A stretch of 64,000 nucleotides of DNA from an uncultured Gemmatimonadaceae bacterium (GTDB lineage Bacteria; Gemmatimonadota; Gemmatimonadetes; Gemmatimonadales; Gemmatimonadaceae): contig CAWBOC010000001.1 in assembly GCA_963790305.1 (NCBI GenBank), forward strand, positions 105,904-169,903, in the 5' to 3' direction. Of the stretch, positions 6,788 to 58,628 are shown piece after piece. The notes below the pieces were generated by a model, which did not search any database, had not been told where the DNA came from, and was given only the letters and a program-made list of their open reading frames with translations. How positions within the stretch are numbered: the stretch's first letter is position 1; each line of letters opens with the position of its first letter. Position numbers and translations under genes: made by a program.

Positions 6788-7061
6788 CGGTCGGCTCCCG
6801 CCTTCGGAGGCGCCGCCAGAAGCGCCGTAATCATGCTCACGAGCGGGACGCGCGGAGCTGGTGACGACCCCCGCACCTATGGACCATAACGTCGGCGACT
6901 GAGCGGTACAAGAGCCGCGGCCGATGAGCTGCACTTCGCCGCACCTTCCTTGACGCATGTATCCGCCTGTCTATGTTGGACAGGTAGCCGGCCAAAGCCC
7001 GCCGCGTGCGTGCGACGTCCGTCGCATAAGCGCTTCGCGGTGAGCGAGATGGAGGTGGAGG

Positions 7062-7960
7062 ATGGAGAGACCGCGCGCATCCATCGCGATCGCCGCGACG
7101 ATCCTCAGTGTCCTGCTCGCGGGGGTGTTCCTCGCCGCCGGCGTTCCCAAGCTCATCGGCGCCGAGCCGCTGATTCTCCAGGCCGCCGCGATGCGCGGAT
7201 TCCCCGAGTGGATCCGCATCGTCGTCGCGATCGTCGAGGTCATCGGGGCAATCGGGCTTCTCATTCCGGCGACGTCCGCCGTTTCCGCAACGCTGCTCGC
7301 CTTGCTGATGGTTCCGGCGGCGATCACGCAGCGGGTCAGCGGAGAGCCAGGCATTCTCGTCCCGGCTGCGCTCTTCATCCTGCTCCTCATCCTCGCGGCG
7401 CTTCGCCAACCCGATGCCTTGCGCAGGATCTGGCGCGAAGCGCGCCACGCACCACACCCGGTATTTCGCGAAGGTGTGATCGCGGGTGTCCTCGGTGCCA
7501 CCGCGATCGCCGTGTGGTTCTTCATCGTCGATCTGGTCGCCGGCCAGACGCTGTTCACACCGACGACGCTTGGACGAGCGGTGTTCAGCGTGCTCGGGGC
7601 AGTGCCCGACAGCGAGAGCCCGATCATCCACGTGCTCGCGTACACCCTCTTTCACTACGCCGCGTTCATCACGCTCGGAATCGTCGCGGCGGCGATGGTG
7701 CGTCTCGCCGGTGACGAGCCGTCGGTGCTGCTCGGGTTCGTGATCCTGTTCGTCGCGTTCGAGGTGGGGTTCTACGCCTTCGTCGCGGTGCTGTCACAGG
7801 TGAGCCCGCTCGGCGAGCTGGCCTGGTGGCAGGTGATGGTTGGGAACCTGATCGCGGCCGCGGCAATGGGGATCTATCTTGCTGCGGAAACACCCCGTGC
7901 TGCGAGAGCAGTTCAGGCACTCGATGGACGCGCAGCCGTGGAGGACGACGAGGCTGAGGT
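7062..7960 (+). CDS. DoxX-family membrane protein with extra TM domain (3' end uncertain)
   Basis: FLAAGVPKL...EVIGAIGLLIP DoxX pattern; many TM helices; ORF runs into the repeat region. Confidence 0.7.
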
Positions 7961-8047
7961 GATCGAGGTGCGTCGAGGGGTCGAGGTGATCAAGGTCAGA
8001 CAGCAGCCTTGACTCCTCGATCATCCTCGACGCACCTCGACAACCTG
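7941..8047. repeat. Inverted array of ~9-nt units (GAGGTGATC / GATCATCCTC-like), hairpin between convergent genes
   Basis: Units visible in direct then inverted orientation. Confidence 0.65.
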
Positions 8048-8619
8048 CTTCTCTCCAGCCTTTCCCGTACCACCGGCCACTCGCGATCCAGAATGCTGTA
8101 CATGGCGGAGTCGCGAATTCGTCCCGACGCCGTGATCAGGTGTGCGCGCAGGATTCCCTCCTCCACCGCCCCGATCCTGAGAATCGCCGCGCGCGACTGC
8201 TGATTGAGTGCATCCGTCTTGAGCTCGACGCGGATGCAGCCGAGCACGTCGAACGCGTGGCGGAGCATCAGATACTTCGCCTCGGTGTTGCACGCCGTGC
8301 GCTGACGGTCGCGGCGTAGCCAGGTCCACCCGATTTCCACACGGCGGTTCGACATATCGATGTTGCCGAACCGCGTGCTGCCAATGATCTCTCCGGTCGA
8401 GGCATCCAGCGTCGCGAACGGCAGCGCGGTGCCGGCGCGCTGCGCCTCGAGCGCCGCGTCGACGTAGACTCGCATGTCCTCCAACGACGCGATCTGCGTC
8501 AGCGTCCACCGCCACAGCTCCTGATCGGCGGCTGCCGCGAACATCGCCTCCGTGTGCGCGAGCGTGAGCGGCTCGAGCCGAACATGACGGCCCGACAGCG
8601 TGACGGGACTGACCTTCAC
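7996..8619 (-). CDS. GNAT N-acetyltransferase (RimJ/RimL-like)
   Basis: VEIGWTW, NTEAKYLMLRHAF, RVELKTD.LN.QS.AAI.RIGA..EG. Confidence 0.88.
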   Translation of the reverse strand: MKVSPVTLSGRHVRLEPLTLAHTEAMFAAAADQELWRWTLTQIASLEDMRVYVDAALEAQRAGTALPFATLDASTGEIIGSTRFGNIDMSNRRVEIGWTWLRRDRQRTACNTEAKYLMLRHAFDVLGCIRVELKTDALNQQSRAAILRIGAVEEGILRAHLITASGRIRDSAMYSILDREWPVVRERLERSRLSRCVEDDRGVKAAV

Positions 8620-8647
8620 GGAATGTTCGGGTGGGGGTGGGCAAGGA

Positions 8648-8693
8648 AGGTAGACCAGGGTGCCGACGCGCGATCGACACCCCTGGTCTACCT
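8648..8693. promoter_or_regulatory. Near-perfect inverted repeat in the divergent promoter region upstream of the biosynthetic operon
   Basis: AGGTAGACCAGGGTGCCGA...TCGACACCCCTGGTCTACCT. Confidence 0.55.
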
Positions 8694-8797
8694 CTTGGTT
8701 CCTACGTCATCCCCGAAGCCCGACTACGTAGGTCGGCGGATGGGTGCGCCGGATTGACCAGGTCGCACATTGCTCCCATGCGGACCTGGAGTGGGCC

Positions 8798-9765
8798 ATG
8801 ACGTCGATCGGTGCGATCCGGTACGAGTTCCCCGCTGGAACGCGGTCTGTCCGCGAGCTGGCGGCGGCCGGTCTGCTCGAGTCGACCGCGGATACGCTCG
8901 AGTCGCTCGGCTTCGAGCAGGTGCGCGTTGCATGCGAGGAGTCGTCGTACTCCCTCGCCCTGCGCCGCGAGCAGCCGTCTCATCGAAGAATACGGCATCG
9001 ACCGCGACAGCATCGGGCTGCTGGTGTACGGCGGCGCGCCCGGGCGGGCTCGCGTTCTCCGCCGGCACGAACACTCGCCGGCGCGGCCGGCGACGTCGTC
9101 TCCGACCGCACGCTTCCGCTATCCCTCCACGCGACTTCAGTACGACCTCGGTCTCGAGCGCGCGGCGGTGCTCGCGGTCGACCAGCTCGCGTGCACCACG
9201 CTCTTCGGCGCCGTGCGCGTCGCTCGCGCCCTTTGCATCGCCGAAGGAATCGAGCGCGCGCTCTGCGTCTCCGCCGACATGTACCCGCCACTCGCCGGTC
9301 GTGAGGCGCTCTTCAACTGCACCGCCGACGCCGGCTGCGCGGTGCTCGTCGAGCGCGAAAGTCGCCACGCAACCGCATCGTCGCCGCGCGCACCGTCACC
9401 AAGGGCTACTACTGGGATGCCGACGCCATGCGCGACGAGATCGTCGCGTCGTACTTCCCGACCGCACGCCACGTCATCGCCGAAACGGTGCGCGATGCGG
9501 GATGGACGCTTGCCGACGTCGACTGGGTAATTCCGCATAACGTCAGCCGGCGCAGTTGGGAGATCCTGATGGGACTCGTCGGCGCTTCCCTCGCGCGCGC
9601 CTGTGGGCAGACAACATCGCGCGCGACGGACACACGCTCGCCGGCGACAACTTCATCAATCTGCACGATGCGCTGGCCTGCGGCGCGATCACCCCCGGCG
9701 ACCGGTTGCTGCTCTTCTCGTACGGCTACGGCGCGCACTGGACCGCTCTCGCGGTGGAGGCCTGA
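8798..9765 (+). CDS. 3-oxoacyl-ACP synthase III (FabH-like) family enzyme (several indels)
   Basis: Stitched motifs DQLACTT (Cys), ALCVSAD, VIPHNV, GHTLAGDN and LLLFSYGYGAHW. Confidence 0.85.
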
Positions 9766-9766
9766 C

Positions 9767-10869
9767 GTGAGCATCCCTCGCTCGATTCTGGTTACGGGCG
9801 CCACCGGGCCTCATCGGCCGCCGCGTGGTCGCCTCGCTTCTGCGCCGCACCAATGCGCCCAATCGTCGTTCTGGTCCGCGATCCGGCACGGTGGCAGGCG
9901 ACGGCGACGCACCTCGGCGCAGGCGCCGCTCGAGTGACGGCCGTGCGCGCCGACATCACGCTTCCCGCCCTCGGGCTGGACCTGCGGACAATGACGCGCT
10001 GTCTCGGCGCGCCATTCCTGCTCGTCCACAGTGCCGGTGACATCGTCTTCTCGCGATCGCTGGCTGACTCGCGCCGCGTGAACGTCGAAGGCACCCGCAA
10101 CGTCATCGAGCTCGCCTATTCATTCTCCGATGCACGGCTCGTTCACGTGAGTACGGCGTTCGCCGTTGGGCCGGCGCACCGGGTTCATCCCGCGAAGGCG
10201 CGGACGCTGCCGGTGAAGGCTGGGTGAACGCGTACGAGCAGTCGAAGCACGAGGCGGAGCGTGATCGTGCGCGAAAGCGGCCTCGAGTACGCGATCGCGC
10301 GGCCGAGCACGGTCGTCTGCGACGATGTCGCGCGGCGCGGTGACGCAGGTGAATGCCGTGCACCGCGCGCTGCGTCTCTATCACGCCGGGCTGGCGTCGA
10401 TGATGCCGGGTTCGGAGGACACGCCGGTCGACGTCATCCCCGCCGACTGGGTGGCGGATGCCATCGCGCGTCTGTCGCTCGCCGCGACTGCGTCGGGCCG
10501 CACGGTACATCTCTGTGCCGGCGACGGCGCGCTTCCCCTCGGCGCGCTGCTCGATCGCACGTACGCGGTCTGGTCGCGGCGATACGAGCTGGCGGCGCCG
10601 AGCGTGGCCCGCCCGCCCTGTCCGAATCTTGGCACATACCAGCTGTTCGAGCGGTCCGTGGACCTCGTGGGTGACGCGCGGCTCAAGCGCATCACGCGGT
10701 CGCTGTCGCACTTCGTGCCGCAGCTCGCGCTCGCCGAAGCGGTTCGACACGTCGCTCTCGCGCGAGCTGCTCGGCGAGACTGCGCCGCCGGTGAGCGCGT
10801 ATTGGGAGCGCATGCTCGAATGGCTTCTCGCTCTCGAACTGGAGCGCCGCGCTCCCGGAGGCTGCGTGA
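9767..10869 (+). CDS. Extended SDR / thioester or fatty-acyl reductase (NAD_binding_4 type; several indels)
   Basis: ILVTGATG, VHSAG, VNVEGTRNV, HVSTAF, NAYEQSK (YxxxK), ARPSTV, VDVIPADWVA. Confidence 0.85.
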
Positions 10870-10897
10870 GCGCGCGGAGCTCGGTTCGCAGGGTGCC

Positions 10898-11131
10898 ATG
10901 GTCGCGTGGCTGAACACTCGGTTCGCGTCCAAGGGCTTCGTCATCACTGCCGACACGCCACTCTTCGCGCGCGGGGTGATCGACTCGCTCGGCATTCTCG
11001 AGCTCATCGCCTGGACGGAAGTGAACACCGGGCGGATCGTGCCCGACGAGAGCATTCGCATGGACAACTTCGGCACCGTCGCGCGCATCGCGCAGACGTT
11101 CGTCGGGGAGGAAGCGCATGCGAACGGCTGA
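10898..11131 (+). CDS. Acyl/aminoacyl carrier protein (true start may be GTG 10866)
   Basis: DTPLFARGVIDSLGILELIAW contains the phosphopantetheine Ser; NFGTVARIA tail; ~77 aa. Confidence 0.88.
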   Translation: MVAWLNTRFASKGFVITADTPLFARGVIDSLGILELIAWTEVNTGRIVPDESIRMDNFGTVARIAQTFVGEEAHANG

Positions 11132-12038
11132 AGGCGTCGTGTCCGCGCTCCGGGCTCGCGGCGAGCTCTGGGATGTCGCCCCCGGGGATCGTCGGCCTGC
11201 GAGGGCGACGCGCTGGCGTTGCTGCGCTCGCTCGAGCACGAAATCATGCCTCGCTCGCGCAACGGGAGACGTCCGAAGACTGGGCGGCGCCGCCGGCGCT
11301 CGCGATGCGCACGCTGGAGCACGCCGAGTATTTCGCGTCGTTCCCGTTCTGGCTCACCGCGGCGTCGCATCTGCCTGACGACGAGTCGCGCGCTGGAGCG
11401 TATTGCGACCGACGATCGAGCCGATGCTCGGCGGCGCGGAGCGCGGCGCGCTGCACCGACGTGGCCCTGCCCCCGGCGCTCTGCTATCACGTCTTCGAGC
11501 GGCTCGCCGGGCGGCGCCTGACGACGACGGAGCTCGTGACACTCGCCGGCACCTGCTGGCGTCATGAGGGGTCGAGACTGGCTGCACTCGAGCGCCAATG
11601 GGCGTTCACAATGCGCGAGATCGTGTGCGTGGGAGTCTCGTCCGAAGAGTGGAGGACGTTTCGGCAGCGTGCGATGCGTCGCGCCGGCGCGCTGGCGTCG
11701 CGCCTCGATCTCGACGCCGGATTTCTCGTCGCAACCGATCCGTTCTTCGCGCCCACCGCGCGTGGGAAGGCAATCGTCCAGCGCGTGAAGGCGCTGAAGC
11801 ATGAGCTCGCGCTTCCCATTGGCGATGAGCGAAGCACCGCGGCCGCGTCGTTCAACAATCACGAGCAGTTCTTTGGCGAGGCCTTCGGCATCACGCTCGT
11901 CGACGGGTGAGGCGGCCTCGAGCGGGTGTGTCGCGTTCGGACTGGAGCGGTGGCTCCTCGCGTTTCTCGTTGCCCACGGCGTGGATCGCGCTGCCTGGCC
12001 GGTACGTCGATGCGACGTACGCGGAGGCCGAATCATGA
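11118..12038 (+). CDS. Seryl-tRNA-synthetase-like amino acid:[carrier protein] ligase (several indels)
   Basis: PALCYHVF, CWRHEG, LERQWAFTMREIV, ATDPFF, KHEL, ASFNNHEQFFG and SGCVAFGLERW; no tRNA-binding coiled coil. Confidence 0.85.
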
Positions 12039-12783
12039 GCACGTCCGCGCTCATTCGCCCGCACCTCTACGCGCGCTTCGCGTCCGCCGCCGAGCGCGGC
12101 GCGTGGTCCATCGACCGGGACATCGCCTGGCATGCCGTCGATCGCGACCGCGCGCTCGCTCAACCCGACATTCTGGTTGCGCTGCGCGACGCGGCCCTCA
12201 TCGAGTCGTTCCACCCGGTCAATCTCGCGCGATTTCTCCGCGTGCTGTGGGACGACGTCGACGGGTGCGCCGCGGTTGGGACTCGAAATGTACGAGGGGT
12301 TCAAGCACTTCCATGCCCTTCGGATGTACCTCGACATCGTCCGGTTCGAGCCCGCGATCACCGACGAGGAGCTGGTCGATCTGCGCCGCGCTGCGTTGAT
12401 CGTGATTTCGCACCGAGCGAGGTCATCGAGCACCTCGTCGAGTTCATGCTCAGCGAGCATCTCGCCGCGTACTTCTTTCGCCGGCTGAGCCGAGCGCGCG
12501 GAGGAGCCGGTGCTCGCCGATTTGCTGCGCTTCATCGCCGCCGACGAAGTGCGACACGCACAGAGCGCCTCCGACCTGATCGCAAAGCGAATCGCACGGG
12601 AACCGGCGCTCACGGATCGCGTCCTCGACCGCGGCGGTCTGCTTCCATCACTACGGCGAGGAGGCGGTGGGCGAGGTCCCCGTCGCCATGCCCGGCGATC
12701 CCATCGCCATCCGCACGTTCGCCGAGCGCATCGAGCGTCTCTGCGGGCGTCGTCTCGTCGATCATCTCAAGACCACGTTGTAA
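12035..12783 (+). CDS. Ferritin-like diiron protein 1 (desaturase/oxygenase-like; indels)
   Basis: WSIDRDIAW N-terminus; LIES, EGFKH, LSEH and ADEVRH helices. Confidence 0.75.
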
Positions 12784-12797
12784 CCGGGAGCCGACAC

Positions 12798-13343
12798 ATG
12801 CTCGACACCACCCGCGAGCTGGACCTCCTCAACTTCTATCGCGCCTCGGAGCTGCACGGGGGCCTCATCCTCGGCCAGATCGCGCGGCGCGTGCGCGACC
12901 CGCAACTCGTGCTCGCCCTTACCCGTCACGCGGCGGAGGAGGTCGTGCATGCGCAATGCTGGACGGAGACGATGATCGCGCTGGGCGGCGAATCCGCGCC
13001 CGGTGCGCGACACCTATCAAGCTCGGTACGCGCGCGCGCTTCGCGCCCCTGTATCGCTCTTTCACGTGCTGGCCCTCACCCAGGTCTTCGAGCGGCGCGT
13101 CTTCCGGCACTTCACGCTGCACTTCAGGCGTCCGGGGACGCATCCCGGCGATTTGCGCGACGCCTCAGACGCCTGCTCGATGAGGAGCGCGAGCACCTCT
13201 CCTGGGTGAAGACCTGGCTCGAGGAGCAGGAGAAGGTTCGTGGGCGCGAGCTCGTCGTGCGCACCATGCGGGAGTTCGCCGAAGCAGACGAGACCATCTA
13301 CGCGGAGCTGTGCGACGAGTACGGCTTCGCACGCGCGGCATGA
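12798..13343 (+). CDS. Ferritin-like diiron protein 2 (indels)
   Basis: YRASELHG, EEVVH, QVFERR and EEREH give the full E/ExxH/E/ExxH ligand set. Confidence 0.8.
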   Translation: MLDTTRELDLLNFYRASELHGGLILGQIARRVRDPQLVLALTRHAAEEVVHAQCWTETMIALGGESAPGARHLSSSVRARASRPCIALSRAGPHPGLRAARLPALHAALQASGDASRRFARRLRRLLDEEREHLSWVKTWLEEQEKVRGRELVVRTMREFAEADETIYAELCDEYGFARAA

Positions 13344-14530
13344 CCACCGCGACCATGGCAGTCGCCGTCTCGCGCGCGGAGCCCGACGTCGCGCGCCCGC
13401 TCGAGCGAGTACGCTCGCGGATGCGAGCGATGGCCCTCTCATGTTCGCCCAGGTCCGCGAGGATCCCTGCATCGAGATGCAGGCGCTCGCGCCCGCTTTG
13501 GGCGGTACGATCGTGGTCGTGAGCTCCGCCGGGTGTACCGCGCTGTCGTTGCTCGCCGCTGGTGCCCGTCACGTCGTCGGCGTGGACCTGTCACGCGCCC
13601 AAAACCATCTCGTCGAGCTCAAATGCGCGGCCATCCGTGCGCTCGCACGCCTGGACGCGATCGCATTCCTCGGCGGCTCAGCCCATGGCCGGCCTGTGCG
13701 CCGGCGTCGATTGTACGGCGTCCTCTCCCCCCTGCTCACCAACCACGCCCGCGCGTACTGGGACGCCAACCGCGATGCGATCGAGCGTGGCGCCTTGCGA
13801 GCGGGCAAAAGCGAACGGTTCATCTCGCTCGTTGCATCCGTCGTGGCACGGGCCGTCGTTCGCTCCGATGGCGTGGCGGCGTTGCTCAACGCTGACAGCG
13901 TTGAGGCACAACGGGACATCTTCGCGCACTCATGGGCTGGATGGCGGTGGCGCGCACTGTTCGCGGTGCTCCTCAATCGCTGGACGTTCTCGCGCGCCTA
14001 TCACCCTTCGTTCTTCGATCACGTCGAGAACCCGAGCTTTGCGCGACACTTTCGGCGCCTCGCCGAGCGAACGCTCACTGAGATTCCCGCACGCGACAAC
14101 TACTTTCTCCACGAGATGCTCACGGGCCGGTACCCCATGCACGAGCCCTTGGGTGTGCCACCCTATCTCACAGCCGCGAGGTGTGGCGCGGGGCGCCGAC
14201 GGCGCACGGACGCTGTCGCCTCGTCGACGGATCGCATGACCGAGTACCTCCGCTCCTGCCCGCCGCGGTCGATCAATGGTTTCGCCCTCTCCAACATTGG
14301 CGAGTGGCTCGATCGAAAGCGGACTCGACGCGCTCTTCAGCGAAGTGGCTCGCACCGCCCGCCCCGGAGCGCGCGTCGTCTTCAGGAATTTCGTTGGGTG
14401 GACCGAGGTTCCAGAGCGGTGGCGCAAGGTCATCGTCGAGCGGCCAGGCTATGGCGAGCGCTTGATACGCCGGGACCGTAGCCTGGTGCAGCATCGCGCC
14501 GTCGTGTGCAATGTGTGGAGCGCGGCGTGA
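13340..14530 (+). CDS. DUF3419 / BtaA-like SAM-dependent 3-amino-3-carboxypropyl transferase (indels)
   Basis: FAQVREDP, SSAGCTALSLL, VDLSRAQNHLVELK..AI, NYFL, LSNIGEW. Confidence 0.8.
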
Positions 14531-15660
14531 GCGCGACCGCCGTCGTGCCCGCGACACGGCTCGTGAGGCTCGCGACCGAGAGCGACAACGCGGCGCTCAT
14601 CGAGCTCGCGGCGTCGTGCCCCATGGAGGGCGACCTGTCGCTCCGCATCGATCGTGCGCCCGACTTCTTCGCGCTGAATCGTCTCGAGGGCGATCGGTGG
14701 AAGGTCGCGGTCGTCGACGGTCCACTCGGAGATCCCGTGGCGTGCGTCGCAACCGCCGAACGGCGCGTGTGGGTACACGGTCGCGCCAGAAACAATGGTC
14801 TACGCCGGCGACCTCAAGGTACACCCTGACTTTCGCGACACGCGCACCGCGGACGCGCTCGAGCGATTCGTCGCCGAGACGGCGCGCGAAGCGGGTGGAG
14901 ATCTCACGCCCGTTGTCTTGACCGTCCTCGCCGGAAACGCGGCAATGGAGCGGCGCGCCGCTGGCCCTCGCGGACTTCCGCGACTTCATCGCTTTGCCAC
15001 GCTGCACTCGTTTGCGATTCCGCTGCTGTGGCGGCGGGTTGTCGATGGCGCTCCCGATCTCCGAGTGCAGCGCGCGACGACGCGCGATCTGGAGGAAATG
15101 GCGGATCTATGGGCGGCGATCGCCCCGACGCGTCAGTTCTCGCATGTTCTGGACGCCGACGCGCTCGCCCGTTGGATTGCCGCCGCGCCCGGGCTCGAGA
15201 TCGACGACTACCTTCTCGCGCGCGACCTGCGCGGAAAGCTGCTGGGCTTCGTCGGCTATGGGATCAGCGCGCGCTCAAGACCCTTCGCGTGCTGCGCTAC
15301 TCGCCCGACGCTGTCGATTCTTCGCGGTCTCGTGACGTCGTAGCGCCCCTCGTCGGCGCAGCCGCCCCGCCGGAGATCGGCGCGCCGCTCCACTACGCCA
15401 ACGCCGTTCACCTCTGTGTTCCGGTGGACCGCGCGGACGTGCTGCGCACCCTCGTCCTCGGTGCCTACGACCGTCTGCGCGGCTCTGATCGCGTCTTCAT
15501 GAACGTCGCCCTCGATGCGCGCGAGCCGATCGTCGCTGCCCTTCGCGGATTGCTCGCCACGCCGACCGCCATTCACGCGTACGCCACCATGCCGCGCGGT
15601 GCGTGGGAGGGTCCGGCGCTCGATGACCGCCCACTGCATTTCGAAACCGCACTCGTCTGA
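14527..15660 (+). CDS. GNAT-fold acyltransferase (indels)
   Basis: VRLATESDNAAL...CPMEGDLSLRIDRAPDFFAL and YAGDLKVHPDFR; GTGA overlap with the upstream gene. Confidence 0.7.
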
Positions 15661-15667
15661 GGCGCAC

Positions 15668-16671
15668 ATGACCGCGAAGATGACCAGACTGGGCTATCAG
15701 AATGCGCTTCTATCGAGCGTTGCGTGCGGCGAACCGCCGCTACTCGCCAAAGCACGACATGGCGGCGCAGCCGTTTCCCGCCCTGATCCAGCTCCAGACG
15801 ATCAACGCCTGCAACGCGTCGTGCATCATGTGTCCCTATCCGCTGTACAAGAAGGAGTTCCCGCGCGGGACGGATGGAGGACGCGCTCTTCGAGAAGATC
15901 ATCGCCGAGATCGCGGAGCGGCCGGAGGTGCACACGTTCGTGCCAATGCTCCAGAACGAGCCCTTCCTCGACAGAAAGCTCTTCGACCGCATTGCGCGCT
16001 TCAAGCAGATCACGCACGGCCGCGTGGAGGTGGAGCTCGTCACGAACGGCGCGTTTCTTACCGCCGAAGCGATCGAACGCATTCGCGACGTCGAGCTCGA
16101 CGTCCTCGACATCAGTCTGGACGCCGTCAGCAGGCAGACATATGAGCGCATCCGCATCGGGCTCGACTTCGACGAGGTCATCGCCGGCGTCGAGCGTGTG
16201 ATCGATGCGCAGCTTCCGCATACCAGCGTGTTCGTGCGCCTGGTGAAGCTCCGCGACAACGCGCACGAGGTCCGCATGTTCGCGGCGCGGTGGCGGGCAC
16301 GAGGGATTCCCGTCTTCGTGTACACCGCGAACAATCGCGTCGGCGCACTTCCCGAGTTCGACGACAAGCTCCGGCTCACGCGCGAGCAGGTACCGCCGCT
16401 CCACCGCATCGGACGCCGGGCGGCGCGCGCCTGGCTCGGCCACTGCCCCGCCCCATTCGCGACGACGGACATCCTTCACGACGGCAGCGTGCTCCTCTGC
16501 ACGCACGATTGGGCGAGAAAGGAGATACTCGGCAACGTCCGCGACCAGACGATCGCCGAGATCTGGAATGGGGAGCGAATGCGCGAGATTCGTGCTGCCG
16601 TATATCGCCGCGAATACGACACCCTACCGGCCTGCCGCGGCTGTTCACTGTGGAAAGATGGCTGGGTTTGA
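15668..16671 (+). CDS. Radical SAM enzyme with SPASM/Twitch domain (indels)
   Basis: CNASCIMC (CxxxCxxC), NEPFL, TNG, ISLD; C-terminal CPAPF..DGSVLLC..GNV..IWNG..CRGC. Confidence 0.9.
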
Positions 16672-18900
16672 GCGTCTCGCGGCCGGGGTCGTGCACCGGC
16701 GTTGGCTCGTGGTGGCCGCCTGGTTGCTCGCCGTCGGAGCGCTCCTTCCTTTCGCCCGGACGATCGAAGACCGCCTAACCGTTGCTGCGCGGGTAGCGGG
16801 AAGTGAGTCTGCGGCGGTCGAGGAGGCTCTCGCCTCGCGATTCGGGTCGCCTTTCGCGCGCTGGGTCGTGCTCGTGGTTGCCGGCGTTCCGGGGCCCGAC
16901 ACGCCCGACGGTCGCGTTCTGTTGGAAAGCGCTGTGCGCACGCTCAACGATCATCCGCACGTGACACGTACCTTTTCGTATCTCGATGACGCCGATTCGT
17001 TGTTCGTCGGCGCGGCGGGAAGCGGGACGTTTCTCGTCGTCGGATTGGACCGGGGGAACGCGCGCGCCGAGCGAATGCTGCCGGGGCTGCGCACGGCGTC
17101 CAACCAGCTGGAGCGCGAGATCCGACGCTCACATCCCGAGGCGACCGTCCGATGGACCGGGGAAATCGCCCTCAACGCCGACCTGCGCGCCGCGAGTGCC
17201 GCAGCGGCAGAAGGCGCTGAGCGGCGTGCCCTTCCGCTGACGCTGGCGGTGCTGCTCCTTGCCTTTGGTGCGCTGGCGGCGGCAATGGTGCCCCTGTTCG
17301 CGGCAGCGGTCGCGGTGGGAGTCACGTTAGGCCTCGCTGCGGTCGCGTCGGCATGGTGGCCGCTGTCGATCGTACTCCAGAACGTGGTGTCGATGCTTGG
17401 CATCGGGCTCGGCATCGACTACGCCCTGCTCATGGTCAGCCGCTTTCGTGCGGCGCGGGCCGGTGGTTCCTCCGTTCATCATGCGGCCGTGGTCTGTGGC
17501 ACACGGGCCGGGCCCACGGTGGTGCTGTCGGCAGGAACGGTCGCGATCGGTTTTGCCGCGTTGCTTCTGGTCCCCCTGGATGAGATTCGCGCGATCGCCG
17601 TCGGCGGCGCTGCTCGTCACATCGATATCGGCGCTGGTCGCCGTAACGCTCGTTCCGGCCGCCCTCGCGATCTGGGGATCGCGGCTGGAGCTCGGGCGGG
17701 TGACGCGAGTCCGCGCGTCACGCGGCGAGGCGCGATGGGCGGGTTGGGCGCGCTTCGCGGTCACACGGCCGCGTGCCGTTCTCGCTGCCGGCGCACTTCC
17801 CATCTGCGCGCTGGCATGGCAGGCGACGCGACTCGACACGCATCTACCTCGCGGGGACTGGCTCCCGCGCGATATGGAGTCCGCTCGCGCCGTTCGCGAT
17901 CTCCAGGCGATGGAGCGTGGCAACGTGGTGCAGAGCATTCGCATCGTGCTCGAGCTGCCAACAGGCGTGACGGTGCTCGACCACGCCGGCTGGCGAGCGA
18001 TGTCGCGAATGACGGCGGCCCTTCTGCGCGAGCCGGAGGTTGCGCGCGTGCGCGCGCTTCCCATCATCGCGCCCGGCGCGCTTCCGGGGTCCATGCTGGA
18101 GTCGCTGCTGCCCACGGAGGTGAAAGCCACCTTCGTCTCGCGCGACGGCAGCTCGACGGTCCTCGAGGTCGTCCCCGCGAACGCCGCGTCGCCTAACGCA
18201 CTCGTCGACCTCGTCCTGCGGCTGCGCGAGTCGGGCGCGGCCGAGCTCAGCGGAGTGAAGGGTGCCCGAATGCTCGTGGGAGGCATTCCCGCCTTCAACG
18301 CCGATTATCGTGCCGCGCTCACGGGCCGCTTCTCCATGCTGGCGGCGGTCGTGATCGTCGCGACCCTGATCGTGCTCGAGCGTCGCCCTGCGCTCGATTC
18401 TGATCCCGCTCAAGGCCGTGCTGCTCAATCTCCTGTCGGTAGGCGCGGCATTCGGCGCAATGGTGCTGGTGTTCGGCGATGGCGTGGGCATTCAGCTCCT
18501 CGGCCATGATTCTCCGCCGGGCGGTACGTTCCCGATGATCCCGGTGCTCGTCTTCTGCATCGTCTTCGGTCTCAGCATGGACTACGAGCTCTTTCTCGTC
18601 TCGCGCATCATGGAGGCCCGACGCTCCGGCGCGAGCGATACCGACGCCATCGTCGAAGGCGTGTCGCGCACCGGTGGCGTCATCACCAGCGCGGCCGCCA
18701 TCATGATCGTCGTGTTTGGCGCCTTCACGCTCGGCGACGTGCTGCTCATACAAATGCTCGGCTTTGCGCTCGCCGTCGCGGTGCTCATCGATGCGACCGT
18801 CGTTCGCATGGCGATTGGACCGGCGCTCTTGCAGCTCGCCGGACGATGGAACTGGTGGCCAGGCTGTGACAGGCCCTTGGGGCCCAAACGGCTAGCTCGC
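16658..18900 (+). CDS. MMPL/RND family lipid exporter (indels; 3' end uncertain)
   Basis: [41 protein letters not shown] and LAGRWNWWP. Confidence 0.9.
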
Positions 18901-21900
18901 CCGCCGCGCCTCGCGGTCGTTCATACGCGCTTCTTCCCGTGGGTGGCGAGCGCTCTCGGTCACCGGCGCCCGGAGCGGTAACGTCACCGTGAACCGGGTG
19001 CCTTCGCCGGGCGTACTCTCCAGAGCGAGGTCGCCCCCGAGTAACCGCGCGAGCCGGCGAGCGACGCTGAGTCCGAGGCCGGTACCCCCAACCTGACGAG
19101 TCGCCGACTGCTGCACTTGCCAGAATGCCTCGAACACCTTGTCGGCGTTCTCCTTCGAGATGCCGATGCCGGTGTCCTCGACGACCACGACAATGCCGCC
19201 GTCGCGCTCCGCGAGCGTCAGCGTCGACGTGTCCGCGCTCGGTGAACTTCACCGCGTTCGAGAGCAAATTGAGGAGAATCTGGCGCACTTTGCCGGCGTC
19301 GGTTTCCATCGCAATCGCATGGTTCGGCACGCGCGTGACGAAGTCGAGCCCCTTCTCCCGCGCCATGGGCTCGATGAGCACGATGGTATCGCGGACGAGC
19401 GCGACCGCATCCGCCGGAGCCCGGACGACCGCCTCGCGACCCGCTTCCATTCGGGAGAAGGTGAGAATCTCCTCGACGATCTCGAGCAAGTGGCGAGACG
19501 CGGTCCGGATCCGCTGCACGTGACCATTCGTCTGCGACGGAATGGCCGTCGGCACGCCCATGAGCAGCAGCTCGGCGTATCCGATGATCGCGTTCAACGG
19601 CGTGCGCAGCTCGTGCGACATGACGGCGAGGAAGTCGCTCTTGGCACGGCTGGCAATGAGCGCCGTCTCGTACAGACGGGCGTTGTCCACCGCCATCGCC
19701 GCGCGCCGCGCAATCTCCTGAGCGAGCGCGAGCTCCTCATCGCCGTACCGCCGTCTCGACTCGGCGCTGACGAGAGTGAGGACGCCGAGCATGCGATCGC
19801 GTCCTTCGATGGGAACGGAGACGTACGAAACCGGTGTGATTCCCTCCATGGTGCTCGCGCGGTGATCATCGGGCGCTTCGAGATCGTGCCTCTGCGGTGA
19901 TACGACCGGGACGAGCTCCGCGTCCCCGGTGCGTGCCACGTGTCCAGGCCCCGACGGCGCGTCGAGCGATATCGGATTGCGAGTGCTGAGCTGCCTGACG
20001 CGCTCCGCCTTGGCGCGGTCGGCGTGCGCCACCGCCACGCGGTGCAATGTGTCCGGATTGGATTCGTCGATGACGTCGACGACACACCAGTCGGCCAGCG
20101 TCGGTACCACCAGCCGCGTAAGCTCCGTGAGCGCCTGGTCGCCATCGAGCGTCGAGGCCAGCACGCGGCTCGCCTCCATGAGAAACCGCTGCATCTCCTC
20201 GGCGCGCTTGCGGTCGGAGATGTCGCGCCAGTATCCGGTGAAGCAGGGCGCTCCCGCGGCGGGCACGCGCGTAATCGTCAGCTCGACGGGAAACTCGGTT
20301 CCGTCCGATCGGAGGCCACGAAGCTCGATGCGTCGGCCAAGGAATCGGGTTTCGCCGGTCTCGAGGTGCGCGTGCAGCGCCGCGCGGAAGACCTCCCGAG
20401 GCGACGGCGGAAGGATCAGCTCCCCCATTTCCCTTCCCACGGCCTGCGACGGCGGCCACCCAAAGGTTCGCTCGGCGGCCGGGTTCCAGTCGGTAATGCG
20501 TCCCGACGCGTCGAAAGAGATGACGCAGTCGATCGCACTGTCAATGACGGCGCGCGTGCGCGCCTCGCTCTCGCGCACCGCGAGCTCCGCCCGGCGGCGC
20601 TCGAGGAACTGACCGGCCTGACTGCCGATGCTCTGCGCCATTTGCAGCAGCTCGTCGTCCGGGTACCGGATCTCGGTACTGAAGAATTCCATCACGCCCA
20701 CGACGCGTCCGGCATCGATGAGCGGGAACGACAGCGCGGCATGCAGGTCACGGTCCGCGAATAGCGCGGCGCGGGTGAATCCCGTCTCGCGCGCGATGTC
20801 GGGAATCCAGAGCGGCGCGGCCGCGGCCCAGGTTTGCCCGGGAATGCCGACCCCGCACTCGAACGCGATGGCGCGATTCGCCTCCGCGAACGCTTCGTCG
20901 TGCTCGTGGTCGAAATGAATGTCCGCGCACCGCAGGACCTGTCGCTGCGCATCGAGCGCCCAGTGGAGCCCCACGTCCCAGCCAAGACTATCGCAGATGC
21001 CGCGCAATATGCGCGGCGCCGCTTCGGACATGCCGCTCGATTCGGCGAGCGTCTGCGTGACGACGAACTGGGCCGCGAGCCGGCGTTCCGCTCGCTTGCG
21101 CATCCCAATGTCGATGAGCACTCCCCGCAGCTGACACGGATGACCGTGTTCGTCGCGCGCTCCATAGACCATCTCGCGCATCCACGTCACGCGACCATCC
21201 GCGCTCAGCAGGCGATACTCGCTCTCACTGTGATCGCACGATTCGGCGACGTCGGCGAGGTGCTCGCGCACGTGCTCCCGATCGTCGGGGTGCACGATCC
21301 GCTCGACGTACGCCCCGGGCTCGAGCCAGACGTCGGCGGGCCATCCCAGCATCGATTCGGCTCGGCGATTCACGAACGTGAAATCCTGGGTGCGTGCGTC
21401 GGCTTCCCAGACGATGGCATCAATGCCTTCGACCAGATCGCGATAGCGGTGCTGCGCATCGACCGCGGCCGTCCGCGCGCCGCGCTCGGCATCCAGCAGC
21501 CGGGCCTGGGCGATCGCCGTCGCCACACGGTCGGCGACGAGCTGTAGGAGACGAATGTCATCCTCGGTGAAGTGCCGAGACGCGTCCGTGCCGATCTCGA
21601 GAACGCCTAACACACGCCCTTCGACGAGCAAGGGTGCCGCCGCCAACGAGCTGAACCGTCGGAGTGCTTGACGCACGCCAGGCATCGCCGCGACATCATC
21701 GACCGCGGCGGCCTCGCGGCTGAGCGCAACCTGGCCCGAGAGTCCCTCGCCCACCGACATCCGCACGTGCTTCGTTACCTCCTCCTCGAGGCCATTGGAG
21801 GCACATGCCACGAGCGTCTTGCCCGTCCTCCGCAATTTCGAGCACCGTCGCGTAGTCCGCTGCCAGGTGCTTGCGAATGCGCGAGAGGAGCTCGCGCAGC

Positions 21901-22383
21901 AGTGCGTCGAAGGAGAGCGTCGCGAGCGCCGGATCGGTGACGGCTCGGAGGGCGCGGATGCGCGCAGTCGCCGCGTCGGCACGATCGCTGGCGTCCCACC
22001 ACTCGCGGCGCAGCCACGCGGCTCGACGATGCGTCACGGCCCCCGCCATCATCGCCACCAGCAATGCCCCGAGCTCAGCGACGACCGTTAGGCGATCGTT
22101 GGCGGCATACTGAAGCACCGAGCCGGGAACGCTGCGCGCGAGCACGACCCACGCGCCCACCACCAGCCCGCCAAGCAACCCCACGCGGAGGCCACCGAGC
22201 GCGGACGCGAGCGCGAGAATCGCGATGAGCCCCGCCGAGGTCGCGGGGAGCTCCATGCCGCGCATGCGCAACCAGGCGGCGAGTGTGACCGCCGTCACCA
22301 CGAGCCCGAGAGCCGCCGCACGCACACTCAGCCGCGTTGCCGGCGTTGCGATGACGGGAGCGTCGGAGAAAGAGTCCTGCGTA
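18892..22383 (-). CDS. Membrane-anchored GAF/PAS/GAF/PAS/GAF sensor histidine kinase (indels)
   Basis: [13 protein letters not shown]-box, [16 protein letters not shown] and GGTGLGL. After an AGGAGG RBS the apparent start reads ACG (possible base error). Confidence 0.88.
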
Positions 22384-22428
22384 CGCTCCTCCTGGAGAGA
22401 GGTCCGGTTTTGGCCGCGCTAGGCGCGC

Positions 22429-32166: not shown

Positions 32167-34161
32167 TTGCCCCAGGCCCATTTCCTTCAGGACCTCCTTC
32201 TCATCTTCGGCCTCGGCGTCTTCGTCGTGGTCGCGTTTCACCGTGCCCGGCTTCCGCCCATTGTCGGCTTTCTCGTCACCGGGCTGGTATGCGGGCCGTT
32301 CGGCTTCGGCCTCGTCGACGGCGTCGAGCACGTCGAAGCAATGGCAGAGATCGGCGTCATCCTGCTCCTGTTCACCGTCGGCATCGAGTTCTCCGTCGAG
32401 GAGCTTTCCCGCGTCCGCACCTTCCTCCTCACCGGTGGAGCGCTCCAGGTCTCACTGACCCTCGGCGCAACCACCGCGGCCGGCATGGCGTTCGGGCTCC
32501 GACTGCCGGTCGCGATCTTTCTCGGAATGCTCGTCGCGCTCAGCAGCACCGCGATCGTCATTCGGATGCTGGCCGACCATAACGAGCTCGACGCTCCACA
32601 CGGCCGAGCGGCGATCGGGATCCTCATTTTCCAGGATCTGGTCGTCGTTCCCATGGTGCTGGTGACGCCCTTCCTCGGCGGCGCGGGGGGCGACATGTCC
32701 GACCTCCTCCTCGTGATCGGCAAGGCGGCGGTGTTCATCGGACTCGCGGTCGTCGCCGCGCGCTGGGTGGTCCCATGGCTGCTCCAGATTGTCGTCAATA
32801 CCCGAAAGCGGGAGGTGTTTCTTCTCACCATCGTGCTCCTCTGCATCGGGATGGCGGTCGCCTCCGCGCAGGCCGGTCTGTCAATGGCGCTCGGCGCGTT
32901 CATCGCCGGACTCATCCTGTCGGAGTCGGAGTACGCCCATCAGGCGCTCGGTGAAGTGCTCCCGCTGCGCGAGGTGTTCAACTCACTGTTCTTCGTGTCG
33001 ATCGGGATGCTGTTCAACATCCGCATCGTGCTCGAGCATCCCGCGCTCATCATCGGTGCGCTGCTGGCCGTCGTCGCGGCGAAGACCCTGATTACGTCGG
33101 GGCTCGTGATGGCGCTCGGCCATCCGCTGCGCATCGCGCTGATGACCGGCGTTCTCACGTCGCAGATCGGGGAGTTCTCGTTCGTGCTCTCGAAGGTGGG
33201 CTCGCAGGCCGGGCTGCTCGGCGGCGAGCTCACTCAGGGGTTCATTGCCGTGGCTGTCGGGTCAATGATGCTCACGCCGCTTCTGGCACGGCTCGCCCCG
33301 CGCGCCTCGGCTCGAATCGAGCGCTGGGTGCCCGGGACGTACGTGCGAGGACGAGCGGTGACCGTGACCGTCCGCGGCGAGCTTCCGCCGCTGGATGACC
33401 ATGTGATCATCGTCGGGTATGGCGTGAACGGAAGGAATCTCGCGCGGATGCTGGGACGTGTCGGCATTCCCTTCATCGTGCTCGAGATGAATCCGGATGC
33501 CGTGCGCGCCGAGCGGAAGCGGGGCAGGCCCATCATGTACGGGGATGCCACGCGGCCCGAGATTCTGAAGCTGGCAAGGATCGAACGTGCCCGTGTGCTG
33601 GTGCTCGCCATTTCGGATGCTGGCGCAACCCGAAGCGCCGTCGATGTCGCTCGACGGCTCAATCGCGAGCTGCATATCGTGGTGCGCAGTCGGTACGTGC
33701 AGGAGATGGCGGCGCTCCTCGCCGTCGGGACCGATGAAGTGGTGCCGGAGGAGTTCGAGACCTCGATCGAGATCTCATCGCGCGTGCTGCGGCGCTACCT
33801 CGTACCGCGGGACGTCATTGAGCGGCTCATTCGGGAGGTGCGCAGCGACTCGTACGAAATGCTCCGTACGATGTCCGACACCCATTCACCGGCCGCGGGG
33901 TTCGACCGCTTTCTGGCCGACCTCTCGCTCGAGGTGTATCGTGTGGAGCGCAACTGCGCGATCGCGGGGATGACGCTCGCCACCTGCGGACTGCGGGAAC
34001 GGAGTGTCTCCGTCGTTGCGATTCAGCGACACGACGCGACAATGCGCTCGACGCCAACCGGCGACGACAAGCTGGAGGAGGGCGACGCCGTCCTGCTCCT
34101 TGGCCCGCCGGAGCGACTGACTGAGGTCGCTGGACTCTTTCGCGCGGGCGACGCGACGTGA
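32167..34161 (+). CDS. CPA2 cation:proton antiporter (Kef-type) with TrkA-N/TrkA-C domains
   Basis: LSSTAIV, LIFQDL, FFVSIGM, SQIGEFSFVL, IVGYGVNG, YGDAT. Confidence 0.92.
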   Translation: MPQAHFLQDLLLIFGLGVFVVVAFHRARLPPIVGFLVTGLVCGPFGFGLVDGVEHVEAMAEIGVILLLFTVGIEFSVEELSRVRTFLLTGGALQVSLTLGATTAAGMAFGLRLPVAIFLGMLVALSSTAIVIRMLADHNELDAPHGRAAIGILIFQDLVVVPMVLVTPFLGGAGGDMSDLLLVIGKAAVFIGLAVVAARWVVPWLLQIVVNTRKREVFLLTIVLLCIGMAVASAQAGLSMALGAFIAGLILSESEYAHQALGEVLPLREVFNSLFFVSIGMLFNIRIVLEHPALIIGALLAVVAAKTLITSGLVMALGHPLRIALMTGVLTSQIGEFSFVLSKVGSQAGLLGGELTQGFIAVAVGSMMLTPLLARLAPRASARIERWVPGTYVRGRAVTVTVRGELPPLDDHVIIVGYGVNGRNLARMLGRVGIPFIVLEMNPDAVRAERKRGRPIMYGDATRPEILKLARIERARVLVLAISDAGATRSAVDVARRLNRELHIVVRSRYVQEMAALLAVGTDEVVPEEFETSIEISSRVLRRYLVPRDVIERLIREVRSDSYEMLRTMSDTHSPAAGFDRFLADLSLEVYRVERNCAIAGMTLATCGLRERSVSVVAIQRHDATMRSTPTGDDKLEEGDAVLLLGPPERLTEVAGLFRAGDAT

Positions 34162-34179
34162 CCCCTCGCCTGCCACTTC

Positions 34180-35802
34180 ATGCCTCGACTCGCGCTGATT
34201 CTCTCCGGCGCCGCCTCGCTCGGATCGTTCGAGGCGGGCGTCCTCACTGAGCTGCTCTGGACTCTCGAGCACGAGTCGCGACACGCTGACCCGGCGCGAC
34301 GGTGGACGCTCGACATCATTACCGGCGCGTCCGCCGGCGCGATGACGGCGGCGCTCGTCGCGCGCGCGGTCATGGCCGACCATCGCAGCGCGCGCGCCCT
34401 GCACTCCGCGTGGGTGGAGGAGATCGACATTCGCGAGCTGCTGCGCGAGCCACCTGCCACGGCGCTTCTCTCCAAGGAGCCGATTCGAGCGATCGCTGGG
34501 CGACATCTCTCCCCACCCGCGGTGGATGCGAGACCAGCAGGGCATGCGCCCGAACGTCTCCGACTGCGGTTCACGCTGGCGAACATGAATGGCGTCGACT
34601 GGCGATACCCGCTGGCGCGGCCCGGCGATCAAGCATTCGTCGCCACGTTCTTCGCCAATGGTGTCCGCTTCAATGTGGATCTGGCCAACGTGCGCGATCC
34701 GGCGTTGTGGGAGCGCATTCGTACCGCGGCCATCGCGTCCGGGAATTTCCCGCTCGCCTTCGTTCCGGAGATGCTCGCGCGCGACGAGCGCGACTTTCGC
34801 GATCACGCGCTCGCGTCGTTTCCCGGCACGTTCACGTACTGCGATGGCGGCCTGTTCGACAACGAGCCGGTGGGTGATGCCATCGATCTCGCCCTCGAGC
34901 AGGATGGCGGTACGATCGCGCCCGACCGTGCGTTCGTGCTCGTGGACGCCAACCTCAACCGCTCCCGCCACGCAGCCACCTTCACCGAGCAGGAGCCGCT
35001 GCTCGCCAACGCGACACGCCTGAGCGCCATGGTTCGCGGCGAGGCGACGGTGCGCGACTGGCTCAAATCGCAGCGCGTCAACAACGAGGTCGCGTGGCGC
35101 GATCGCGTGCTCACCGACCTCGTCGCCATGGTGCGCGATAATCGCCTCGACGACGCAGCGGCCTTCTCGGCGAGCCTGCATCGCACCGCGTCCGACATCG
35201 TCGGCACCAAGCGCGCGATCTTCCCGGACAGATACCCGGAGAACTATCTGGACCGGGCGCTCGAGCGCACCCGTCGCTCGCACGCCGAGCGGCTGGTCGG
35301 CCTCACATCTTTGCAGCAGGAGATCCTCGTGCGCGTCATCTTCCTGCTCAACAGCGTGGCGGGACTCGACAAGAAGCAGCAGCTGAAGATCGGAATCATC
35401 TACACCGAGCCGCGGCTCACCGCTGGCGACACGTTAGGCGCGTTCGGAGGGTTCTTTCACCGCGACTGGCGCGAACACGATTATCGGCTGGGCCGGCGCG
35501 CCGCGCGCGAACGCCTCGCTGCGCTACTCTCCCTCGACGGCCCTCCTCCCCTCGAGCCGGGCTTCGAGCGCGAATACGAGATCCCGAAGGAATGGGAGGG
35601 CTTCAAGGACGCCACGCTGCGCGATGCGGACATGGCACCGCGACTCGCGTTGCGAGACATGCTCGTCGCACGCGCGCGTGGGCTTGTCGAGGAGCAAGCC
35701 ATTGGCCCGCGCTGGCTGCGCTGGCTCACTCGCCCCGCCGCGAAGGCGGCCGTGGCCGGGGCGGTGAAGGCGAAGCTGGACAGGATTCTGGGGCTGGACT
35801 AG
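34180..35802 (+). CDS. Patatin-like phospholipase
   Basis: SGAASLGSFEAG, GASAG (Ser) and DGG (Asp). Confidence 0.85.
   Translation: MPRLALILSGAASLGSFEAGVLTELLWTLEHESRHADPARRWTLDIITGASAGAMTAALVARAVMADHRSARALHSAWVEEIDIRELLREPPATALLSKEPIRAIAGRHLSPPAVDARPAGHAPERLRLRFTLANMNGVDWRYPLARPGDQAFVATFFANGVRFNVDLANVRDPALWERIRTAAIASGNFPLAFVPEMLARDERDFRDHALASFPGTFTYCDGGLFDNEPVGDAIDLALEQDGGTIAPDRAFVLVDANLNRSRHAATFTEQEPLLANATRLSAMVRGEATVRDWLKSQRVNNEVAWRDRVLTDLVAMVRDNRLDDAAAFSASLHRTASDIVGTKRAIFPDRYPENYLDRALERTRRSHAERLVGLTSLQQEILVRVIFLLNSVAGLDKKQQLKIGIIYTEPRLTAGDTLGAFGGFFHRDWREHDYRLGRRAARERLAALLSLDGPPPLEPGFEREYEIPKEWEGFKDATLRDADMAPRLALRDMLVARARGLVEEQAIGPRWLRWLTRPAAKAAVAGAVKAKLDRILGLD

Positions 35803-56140: not shown

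Positions 56141-58628
<2,488 letters not shown>

Follow-up and report, generated by a model that had tools for sequence, protein, structure and literature searches.

A stretch of 64,000 nucleotides from the genome of an uncultured Gemmatimonadaceae bacterium (G000:C1:105904-169903; genome of 4.3 Mb in 13 contigs, 66% GC), hereinafter the window, contains ten co-oriented genes centered on a seryl-tRNA synthetase (SerRS)-like amino acid:[carrier protein] ligase of the Bll0957 type and a stand-alone acyl carrier protein (ACP). On balance, we favor the view that these genes constitute a functional and conserved operon of the Gemmatimonadota, which makes and exports an amino-acid-derived lipid, and that the broken reading frames seen in the window are errors of the consensus sequence. 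The likeliest product would be an N-acylated amino-alcohol lipid that bears a headgroup of the homoserine type and is exported. A lipid is suggested because four of the encoded proteins resemble lipid-handling enzymes, namely the first of two diiron proteins (Fer1), a tandem GNAT acyltransferase, a BtaA-like DUF3419 protein and an MMPL-family exporter. A preliminary description of this DNA, made from its sequence alone, had proposed an aminolipid or an N-oxidized metabolite; of the two, the aminolipid emerges as the better supported.

The ligase, its carrier protein and the conservation of the operon

Gene coordinates in the window were obtained by transferring, via a blastn alignment, the open reading frames (ORFs) of a relative from the same genus (G004; operon contig DATFFP010000028.1), which is colinear with the window at approximately 82% nucleotide identity and carries ten clean co-oriented ORFs at the orthologous place. 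Read against these intact orthologues, none of the ten keeps to a single frame in the window; the ten genes and their order, as listed in the preliminary description, are hence real by homology only, and none is present in the window as an intact ORF. The extent given there (8798..18900) is essentially right, with the operon beginning at the ATG at 8798 and ending with the MMPL gene at 18981, and the overlapping junctions that it reported at 12035 (ATGA), 13340 (ATGA) and 14527 (GTGA) are present in the window sequence, together with a further GTGA at 10866. The family assignments below were made on the intact orthologues from G004, unless another source is named.

The ligase gene (11115-12038, on the plus strand like the other nine) falls into three frame segments in the window. 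Its orthologue, a protein of 303 aa, matches NF005479 (E = 8.2e-55, 186 bits) and, over residues 40-293, the structure of Bll0957 (PDB 3mey; E = 2.8e-38 with the single sequence and 1.6e-47 with a profile). The match extends only to the catalytic half of the methanogen-type SerRS, and there is no tRNA-binding domain. Class II motifs 2 and 3 are conserved, and C121, R147/E149, E166, C268 and R275, which are invariant in four orthologues, align with the same residues of Bll0957; the conserved Cys/Glu/Cys set presumably provides the zinc ligands. Loading of amino acids on carrier proteins is reported to have been shown biochemically for this family. Such ligases were described in 2010, and their biological role is given as still unknown in the pertinent passages of a 2022 review (PMC9437257).

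Directly upstream of the ligase gene, and overlapping its start, is the gene for the ACP (10866-11131; insertions at 10881 and 10889, both in its first 30 bases). The orthologous protein has 87 aa and a DSL phosphopantetheine site, and matches the PP-binding domain with E = 9e-4. Pfam and NCBIfam searches recovered no adenylation, condensation or ketosynthase-acyltransferase (KS-AT) domains in the window region or in the intact orthologous locus. The matches described above thus bear out the earlier proposal of a carrier-protein system lacking non-ribosomal peptide synthetase (NRPS) and polyketide synthase (PKS) modules and centered on a Bll0957-type ligase beside its own ACP. A link to the OlsHI ornithine-lipid system, raised by a weak match of the ACP to NF052616 (E = 1.8e-4), was rejected, as proteins of the OlsH and OlsI types are absent here; the portion of the literature consulted describes these as a GH3-like ATP-dependent enzyme and an alpha/beta hydrolase, respectively (PMC12971839).

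An alignment of four ligase orthologues, scanned against one genome per prokaryotic species, recovered 58 loci, all of them in metagenome-assembled genomes (MAGs), nearly all of which belong to Gemmatimonadaceae, Gemmatimonadales or Longimicrobiales; one locus each is labeled as Bdellovibrionota, Myxococcaceae and Bryobacteraceae. The gene content of each locus, determined by tblastn with the G004 proteins, is subject to the fact that many loci are cut by contig ends. Conserved co-occurrence in other genomes, which the preliminary description had named as a test of its proposal, is what we observed: in 55 of the 58 loci the genes are colinear on one strand in the order ketosynthase III (KSIII), reductase, ACP, ligase, Fer1, the second diiron protein (Fer2), DUF3419, GNAT, the radical S-adenosylmethionine (SAM) enzyme where present, and MMPL. 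The core six genes, from KSIII to Fer2, were found in 41 loci and all nine genes other than that for the radical SAM enzyme in 26, and the ACP was detected in 54. The radical SAM gene, which the preliminary description had included in the system, is indeed present here, but as it occurs in only eight of the 29 loci with both of its neighbors, GNAT and MMPL, it is not a core member.

In two Longimicrobiales loci (L061 and L062) the operon stops after Fer2 although the sequence continues. A phosphopantetheinyl transferase (PPTase) gene is found upstream of KSIII in L061, a PPTase-like ORF immediately precedes KSIII in 21 loci, and in 12 loci a large LuxR/AAA/TPR regulator is encoded nearby. The DoxX and small GNAT genes upstream of the operon have counterparts at this place only in members of the genus, and therefore lie outside the cluster. 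The Fer2 marker was recovered in eight of 401 genomes sampled evenly across the phylum, all in the family of the window, and DUF3419 in nine of 41 close relatives. The cluster is conserved where present, yet patchy, and from its gene content it looks like an accessory biosynthetic gene cluster in which a six-gene core is accompanied by tailoring and export genes; the core from KSIII to Fer2 would be self-sufficient. The only rearranged version was observed on a MAG contig labeled as Myxococcaceae (L065), where GNAT and radical SAM genes are set apart, approximately 4 kb upstream of the genes for KSIII, reductase, ACP, ligase and Fer1, with an Omp85-family gene following; no DUF3419 or MMPL was detected at this locus.

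Predicted activities and the proposed product

KSIII, a FabH-like protein of the thiolase fold, is encoded at 8798-9765 in four frame segments. The intact orthologue matches ACP_syn_III_C (E = 2.2e-17) and structures of FabH (E down to 4.9e-12). It lacks the Cys-His-Asn triad of KAS III/FabH, with His276 at the position of the Asn and GHT in place of the GNT of FabH; C131, H245 and H276 are invariant in 48 orthologues. The resulting Cys-His-His arrangement is the triad of elongating ketosynthases, and would favor carbanion (Claisen) chemistry over a simple transfer of acyl groups. The next gene (9767-10869, with at least five frame changes in the window) codes for a short-chain dehydrogenase/reductase (SDR), apparently of the thioester-reductase type, which matches NAD_binding_4 (E = 2.8e-38, 132 bits against a cutoff of 20) and, below its cutoff of 213, the thioester reductase domain model TIGR01746 (E = 1.3e-29, 103.6 bits). 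Because Pfam and NCBIfam detected no thioesterase among the operon proteins, this reductase is the only plausible release enzyme.

The ligase gene is followed by those for the two diiron proteins. Fer1 (12035-12783, frameshifted in the window) has invariant ExxH motifs (E57/H60 and E171/H174), and a profile of the family recovers DesA2, a mycobacterial homologue of acyl-ACP desaturases (1za0; E = 3.4e-9), with the DEVRH motif aligned; its match to the Pfam family FA_desaturase_2 (E = 0.001) is below the cutoff. A Foldseek search with its AlphaFold model (predicted local distance difference test, pLDDT, of 88) returned at the top an R2-like ligand-binding oxidase (R2lox) and stearoyl-ACP desaturase (E ~1e-3, template modeling (TM) scores of 0.5-0.6). 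Fer2 (12798-13343, 180 aa, in three frame pieces) is a ferritin-like four-helix protein with the pattern E..EExxH..E..ExxH, of which E19, E48/E49, H52, E99, E130 and H133 are invariant in 37 sequences. It shows only weak matches to bacterioferritin, COQ7, rubrerythrin and AurF, and against solved structures, searched with the single sequence and a profile, the best match was bacterioferritin (E = 0.0028).

DUF3419 (13340-14530, three frame segments) is a member of the BtaA family of SAM-dependent transferases (PF11899, E = 2.7e-57, 195 bits against a cutoff of 28.2), and its homologues carry the automatic names BtaA or SAM:diacylglycerol 3-amino-3-carboxypropyl transferase. In the relevant part of one study BtaA strongly matches DUF3419, and the domain tracks the synthesis of the betaine lipid diacylglyceryltrimethylhomoserine (DGTS) in algae (PMC6642084). 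The GNAT protein (14527-15660, three frame segments) has no Pfam or NCBIfam match in G004 and no solved relative by sequence. Hence, whereas the families given for the other proteins in the preliminary description are recovered on the intact orthologues, that of the GNAT, here a tandem one, stands on its placement in GNAT clusters of a language-model protein atlas and on its fold: with its AlphaFold model (pLDDT 91) the top 40 or more Foldseek matches are all N-myristoyltransferases (E ~1e-12, TM ~0.6, 12-14% identity). By this likeness, which is one of fold only, the tandem GNAT resembles an enzyme by which a C14 acyl chain is transferred to an amine. The optional radical SAM enzyme (15668-16671) combines Radical_SAM and SPASM domains. 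The operon ends with the MMPL-family RND exporter (16658-18981, start ATG at 16658, three frames in the window), whose orthologue matches PF03176 in two stretches (E = 1e-68) and shows weaker similarity to the MmpL3 and HpnN models. Of the four overlapping junctions named above, that at 10866 joins the reductase gene to the ACP gene, that at 12035 the ligase gene to Fer1, that at 13340 Fer2 to DUF3419, and that at 14527 DUF3419 to GNAT.

These assignments suggest a pathway in which the SerRS-like ligase, by analogy with its family, would load a small amino acid (serine or glycine) as a thioester on the dedicated ACP. KSIII would then join a fatty acyl chain to the ACP-bound residue, most likely by a Claisen-type C-C condensation at C-alpha giving a 2-amino-3-oxoacyl-ACP. 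The diiron proteins are predicted to oxidize the ACP-bound intermediate, either converting seryl-ACP to an aminomalonyl-type extender prior to the condensation, or desaturating or hydroxylating the chain afterwards. Reductive release by the thioester reductase would yield an amino aldehyde or amino alcohol, the free amine of which could be acylated with a second fatty acyl chain by the tandem GNAT, as its N-myristoyltransferase-like fold suggests. The hydroxyl would receive a 3-amino-3-carboxypropyl (homoserine) headgroup from the BtaA-like enzyme, going by the family of the latter; in loci that have it, the radical SAM enzyme may introduce an optional modification, and the MMPL pump would export the lipid.

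It is conceivable, though we regard this as possible rather than probable, that the six-gene core provides a route to sphingoid-like long-chain bases independent of pyridoxal phosphate (PLP), with tailoring to a ceramide-like, homoserine-headed and phosphorus-free lipid of the outer membrane. The C2-C3 bond would in this case be formed by KSIII after diiron oxidation of seryl-ACP to a unit of the aminomalonyl type, or by direct enolate chemistry on glycyl-ACP, and the thioester reductase would turn the carboxyl of the amino acid into the C1 alcohol. If true, such a route would also be the first physiological role to be assigned to the amino acid:[carrier protein] ligases. Formation of the C-C bond as proposed would further mean that an amino-alcohol (sphingoid-like) lipid can be made without the PLP enzyme of all described routes, and in an abundant and almost uncultured soil phylum. 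The occurrence of a ligase subfamily in a tightly conserved operon with mostly lipid-like partners makes the role of the family testable.

Several observations weigh against the proposal of an exported aminolipid made in this manner. With 186 bits the ligase remains below the equivalog cutoff of NF005479 (357) and therefore represents a divergent subfamily, and the amino acid that it would load cannot be read from its sequence. We know of no characterized precedent for a Cys-His-His KSIII, and it is for this reason possible that the enzyme transfers an acyl group to an amine instead of forming a C-C bond. The structural matches of Fer1 are weak, as their E-values indicate, and Fer2 is devoid of an informative relative. 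DUF3419 has a methyltransferase-like SAM fold and some of its homologues also match PF08241, so that it could catalyze plain methylation. MMPL pumps also export non-lipids, for example siderophores. Moreover, the 58 loci come without exception from MAGs, and all steps of the mechanism are predictions from the families and folds of the proteins.

Relationship to known systems and alternative products

A close point of comparison is offered by the cassettes of Alpha- and Betaproteobacteria that contain Bll0957 and Atu2573, in which the same ligase family is also accompanied by a dedicated small carrier protein. The canonical cassette, as found in Azospirillum (L081), Rhizobium (L084) and Burkholderia gladioli (L086), consists of ACP, acyl-CoA dehydrogenase, ligase and DUF1839, and its ligases are approximately 31-34% identical to the one described here. 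In contrast, the operon in G004 contains neither the acyl-CoA dehydrogenase nor DUF1839 and shares only ligase and carrier with the cassette; in their place are KSIII, the thioester reductase, two diiron proteins, the BtaA-like protein, the tandem GNAT and MMPL. Judged by gene content, the ligase family is here set in another architecture. On the symbiotic plasmid of Rhizobium gallicum (L084 5482-8802) the canonical cassette lies directly downstream of nifKENX-fdxB and upstream of a gene for 1-aminocyclopropane-1-carboxylate (ACC) deaminase.

A second parallel is the cassette for the aminomalonyl-ACP extender unit, known from PKS/NRPS clusters of the zwittermicin type, in which an amino acid is likewise held on a stand-alone carrier, acted upon by two oxidative enzymes and then used by a condensing enzyme. 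That cassette uses flavin- and NAD-dependent dehydrogenases and a modular PKS, whereas the operon has two ferritin-like diiron proteins and a free-standing Cys-His-His KSIII. The best plasmid match of the ligase, from Streptomyces sp. NBC_00984 (37.9% identity, E = 2e-40), is encoded within a PKS/NRPS cluster (L080 6362-11231), where it stands fourth in a series that runs 3-hydroxyacyl-CoA dehydrogenase, carrier protein, acyl-CoA dehydrogenase, ligase and acyltransferase. To judge by the gene names, the ligase looks here to have replaced the adenylation enzyme in a cassette resembling those for aminomalonyl- or hydroxymalonyl-ACP. On plasmid pTM2 of Tistrella mobilis (L083 6727-11037) the order is diiron oxygenase, an 84-aa ORF that is likely the carrier, ligase, nitronate monooxygenase and SAM methyltransferase, which suggests N-oxygenation of a carrier-bound amino acid. 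From the gene orders in Streptomyces and Tistrella, oxidation of carrier-bound amino acids appears to recur around the ligase family. Kinship of Fer1 and Fer2 with the Tistrella diiron oxygenase was considered and rejected, as hhalign gave probabilities of 0.4% and 4.6%, respectively, which indicate no usable relation.

A Bdellovibrionota MAG (L042 7707-10885) encodes a JmjC-like protein, a fusion of a hexapeptide-repeat transferase to a carrier, and a ligase homologue (48% identity), and looks like another use of aminoacyl-carrier chemistry. This locus and those on plasmids of S. clavuligerus and B. thuringiensis were not retained as members, as their ligase homologues stand in other contexts and belong to different clusters.

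With respect to headgroup chemistry, the DUF3419 protein clearly belongs with BtaA, which together with BtaB makes DGTS. The operon differs from the BtaA/BtaB system in having no gene for a BtaB-type methyltransferase, and diacylglycerol is unlikely to be the acceptor, because the DUF3419 gene is embedded in a pathway that would make its own acceptor. The proposed lipid pathway also parallels the bacterial sphingolipid route (Spt, ceramide synthase, ceramide reductase and a dedicated ACP) and the PKS-AOS route to sphinganine (SgaAB) in the joining of an acyl chain to an amino acid at C-alpha, in the reduction that follows and, going by the Caulobacter pathway, in N-acylation by a GNAT-type enzyme, addition of a headgroup and export to the outer membrane. 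In place of the enzymes of these routes the operon would use a thiolase-fold enzyme, an aminoacyl-tRNA synthetase-like ligase and a thioester reductase. Its GNAT has no NCBIfam match. According to the relevant sections of one source, all described routes to sphingoid bases, including a PKS-dependent one, use a PLP-dependent alpha-oxoamine synthase (PMC12134224). Pfam and NCBIfam found no alpha-oxoamine synthase or aminotransferase-class domain among the operon proteins of G004.

Two alternative products deserve consideration, both of which we regard as rather unlikely. The first is a small signal of the Pvf type, in which case the core would make an N-oxygenated or self-condensing amino aldehyde leading to molecules of the pyrazine or N-oxide type, with tailoring by the GNAT and DUF3419 and export of a non-lipid by MMPL. 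Signaling clusters of the PvfC/PvfB type combine an adenylation-thiolation-reductase (A-T-R) NRPS with a diiron N-oxygenase. The operon resembles them in having a loading enzyme, a carrier, a putative thioester reductase and putative diiron oxygenases, and its ligase, ACP and reductase together mimic the A-T-R arrangement. The weak matches of the Fer2 orthologue of L061 to AurF (E = 8.6e-4) and COQ7, the diiron oxygenase and nitronate monooxygenase beside the Tistrella ligase, and the existence in Longimicrobiales of a core without GNAT, DUF3419 and MMPL are all consistent with such a signal. However, the operon has no adenylation domain, Fer1 is desaturase-like and not AurF-like, the AurF match of Fer2 is weak, and KSIII, GNAT, the BtaA-like protein and MMPL are additional to the Pvf complement. 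An amino-aldehyde signal would leave KSIII without a role, and would be at odds with relatives of Fer1 that bind long acyl chains, with the resemblance of the GNAT to a fatty-acyl transferase, and with the action of BtaA-family enzymes and MmpL3/HpnN-like pumps on lipids; the two diiron proteins, moreover, show no detectable relation to that of Tistrella.

The second alternative, which we hold to be doubtful in equal measure, has the aminoacyl-ACP act as a starter, the aminoacyl group of which KSIII would accept on its cysteine and condense with the malonyl-ACP of fatty-acid synthesis, so that omega- or (omega-1)-amino fatty acids would be formed, reduced to amino fatty alcohols by a fatty acyl reductase (FAR)-like activity, and then N-acylated and furnished with a headgroup. 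Priming with a dedicated acyl donor, followed by extension with malonyl-ACP, is the usual mode of FabH-type enzymes, and a starter role would follow this priming logic. The residues for the oxyanion and for decarboxylation, His245 and His276, are kept, and NAD_binding_4 is also the family of the fatty acyl reductases. On the other hand, the reductase and the diiron enzymes would have to use the housekeeping ACP and not that of the operon, the operon includes neither a malonyl transferase nor a second ACP, and the reductase scores best with thioester reductase models of the NRPS type.

Searches of the literature (main papers and abstracts, without supplements) on the ligase family, DUF3419, DUF1839, aminoacyl-ACP and Gemmatimonadota lipids yielded no description of this gene combination. 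Each of the enzyme families represented in the operon is known; their combination, within the literature covered, is new, in agreement with the preliminary description, which knew of no characterized cluster of this kind.

Origin of the broken reading frames

In the window's own open frames Pfam recovers only fragments of the operon proteins: a C-terminal piece of KSIII (9541-9765), a piece of NAD_binding_4 (9766-10227), DUF3419 (13210-14481, 178.7 bits), radical SAM/SPASM (15787-16671) and pieces of MMPL in three different frames (16247-18981). Compared with G004, 51 single-base insertions fall between 8740 and 18400 of the window; counted in 2-kb bins, one-base insertions from 8 to 16 kb number 15, 18, 12 and 9 (54), while elsewhere there is about 1 per 2 kb, with 0-2 in most bins. 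The mismatch rate in the same bins is an ordinary 15-18%. Since 46 of the 51 insertions are also extra relative to G005, as are 45 of 48 in the comparison with G008, they can be taken as peculiar to the window. One-base deletions relative to G004 are almost absent (one base is missing after 12394, where it is present in a soil contig), and the operon alignment holds no larger deletions. There are no in-frame nonsense codons: of 3871 aligned residues only three are stops, and these are either enclosed by two indels in an out-of-frame stretch or located upstream of a start codon. Where in frame, the proteins are 66-94% identical to those of G004, and the operon orthologues are single-frame in G004, G005, G008 and G020.

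As a further line of evidence, contigs from four public soil metagenome runs, 90-99% alike to the window, were aligned to positions 7000-20000; the runs share 0.05-0.11 of the words of the stretch, and in single runs contig cover is absent or thin over parts of it. At 8752/8754, 12276, 12488, 12628 and 12989 the extra base is absent from every listed soil contig that spans the site, and it is likewise absent from the spanning contigs at 14174, 14219, 14234 and 14314. Some of the contigs without the insertions are 98-99% alike to the window, and those that align without gaps cover only stretches free of such insertion sites. A point against reading too much into these contigs is that they derive from other samples, or from samples of unknown relation to that of the window.

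An excess of one-base insertions without an excess of substitutions, nonsense codons or deletions favors assembly error, and it is a strong inference from the aligned sequences that the broken frames stem from consensus errors in poorly polished patches of a noisy assembly, presumably one of long reads, and not from decay. The decayed locus that the preliminary description had allowed for, with stop codons as its mark, is thus not what the frame breaks point to. A genuine pseudogene array, recently inactivated in this organism and accruing frameshifts while its relatives remain intact, would account for the disruption of all ten genes, for the peak of insertion density over the operon and, through frequent loss, for the patchy distribution of the Fer2 marker and DUF3419, yet we consider it very improbable in view of the insertion bias, the ordinary substitution divergence and preserved in-frame protein identity, the closely similar contigs without the insertions, the disruption of genes elsewhere in the window and the 13-contig MAG, a form that would be typical of long-read assembly. 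We propose that frame breaks in this genome, those of the ten operon genes included, should be backed by reads before they are counted as pseudogenes. ORF length was tried as a proxy for frameshift load and discarded, being uninformative in this high-GC genome.

Outside the operon, 11 of 27 G004 ORFs are likewise spread over two or more frames of the window. A second patch of insertions is seen at 56138-58625 (plus strand), in an unrelated gene; the frame has to change six times for this gene to follow its G004 orthologue, an ORF of 836 aa, and eight one-base insertions fall in the 56-58 kb bin. A large sensor histidine kinase with GAF/PAS domains, encoded convergently with MMPL (18895-22409, minus strand), is read in three frames (two frame changes) in the window and is intact in G004 and G005. 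Finally, the stretch 34130-35889 of the window is without a counterpart at the syntenic place in G004, and contains a 540-aa ORF (34180-35802) whose product combines DUF3376 and a domain of patatin-like phospholipases.

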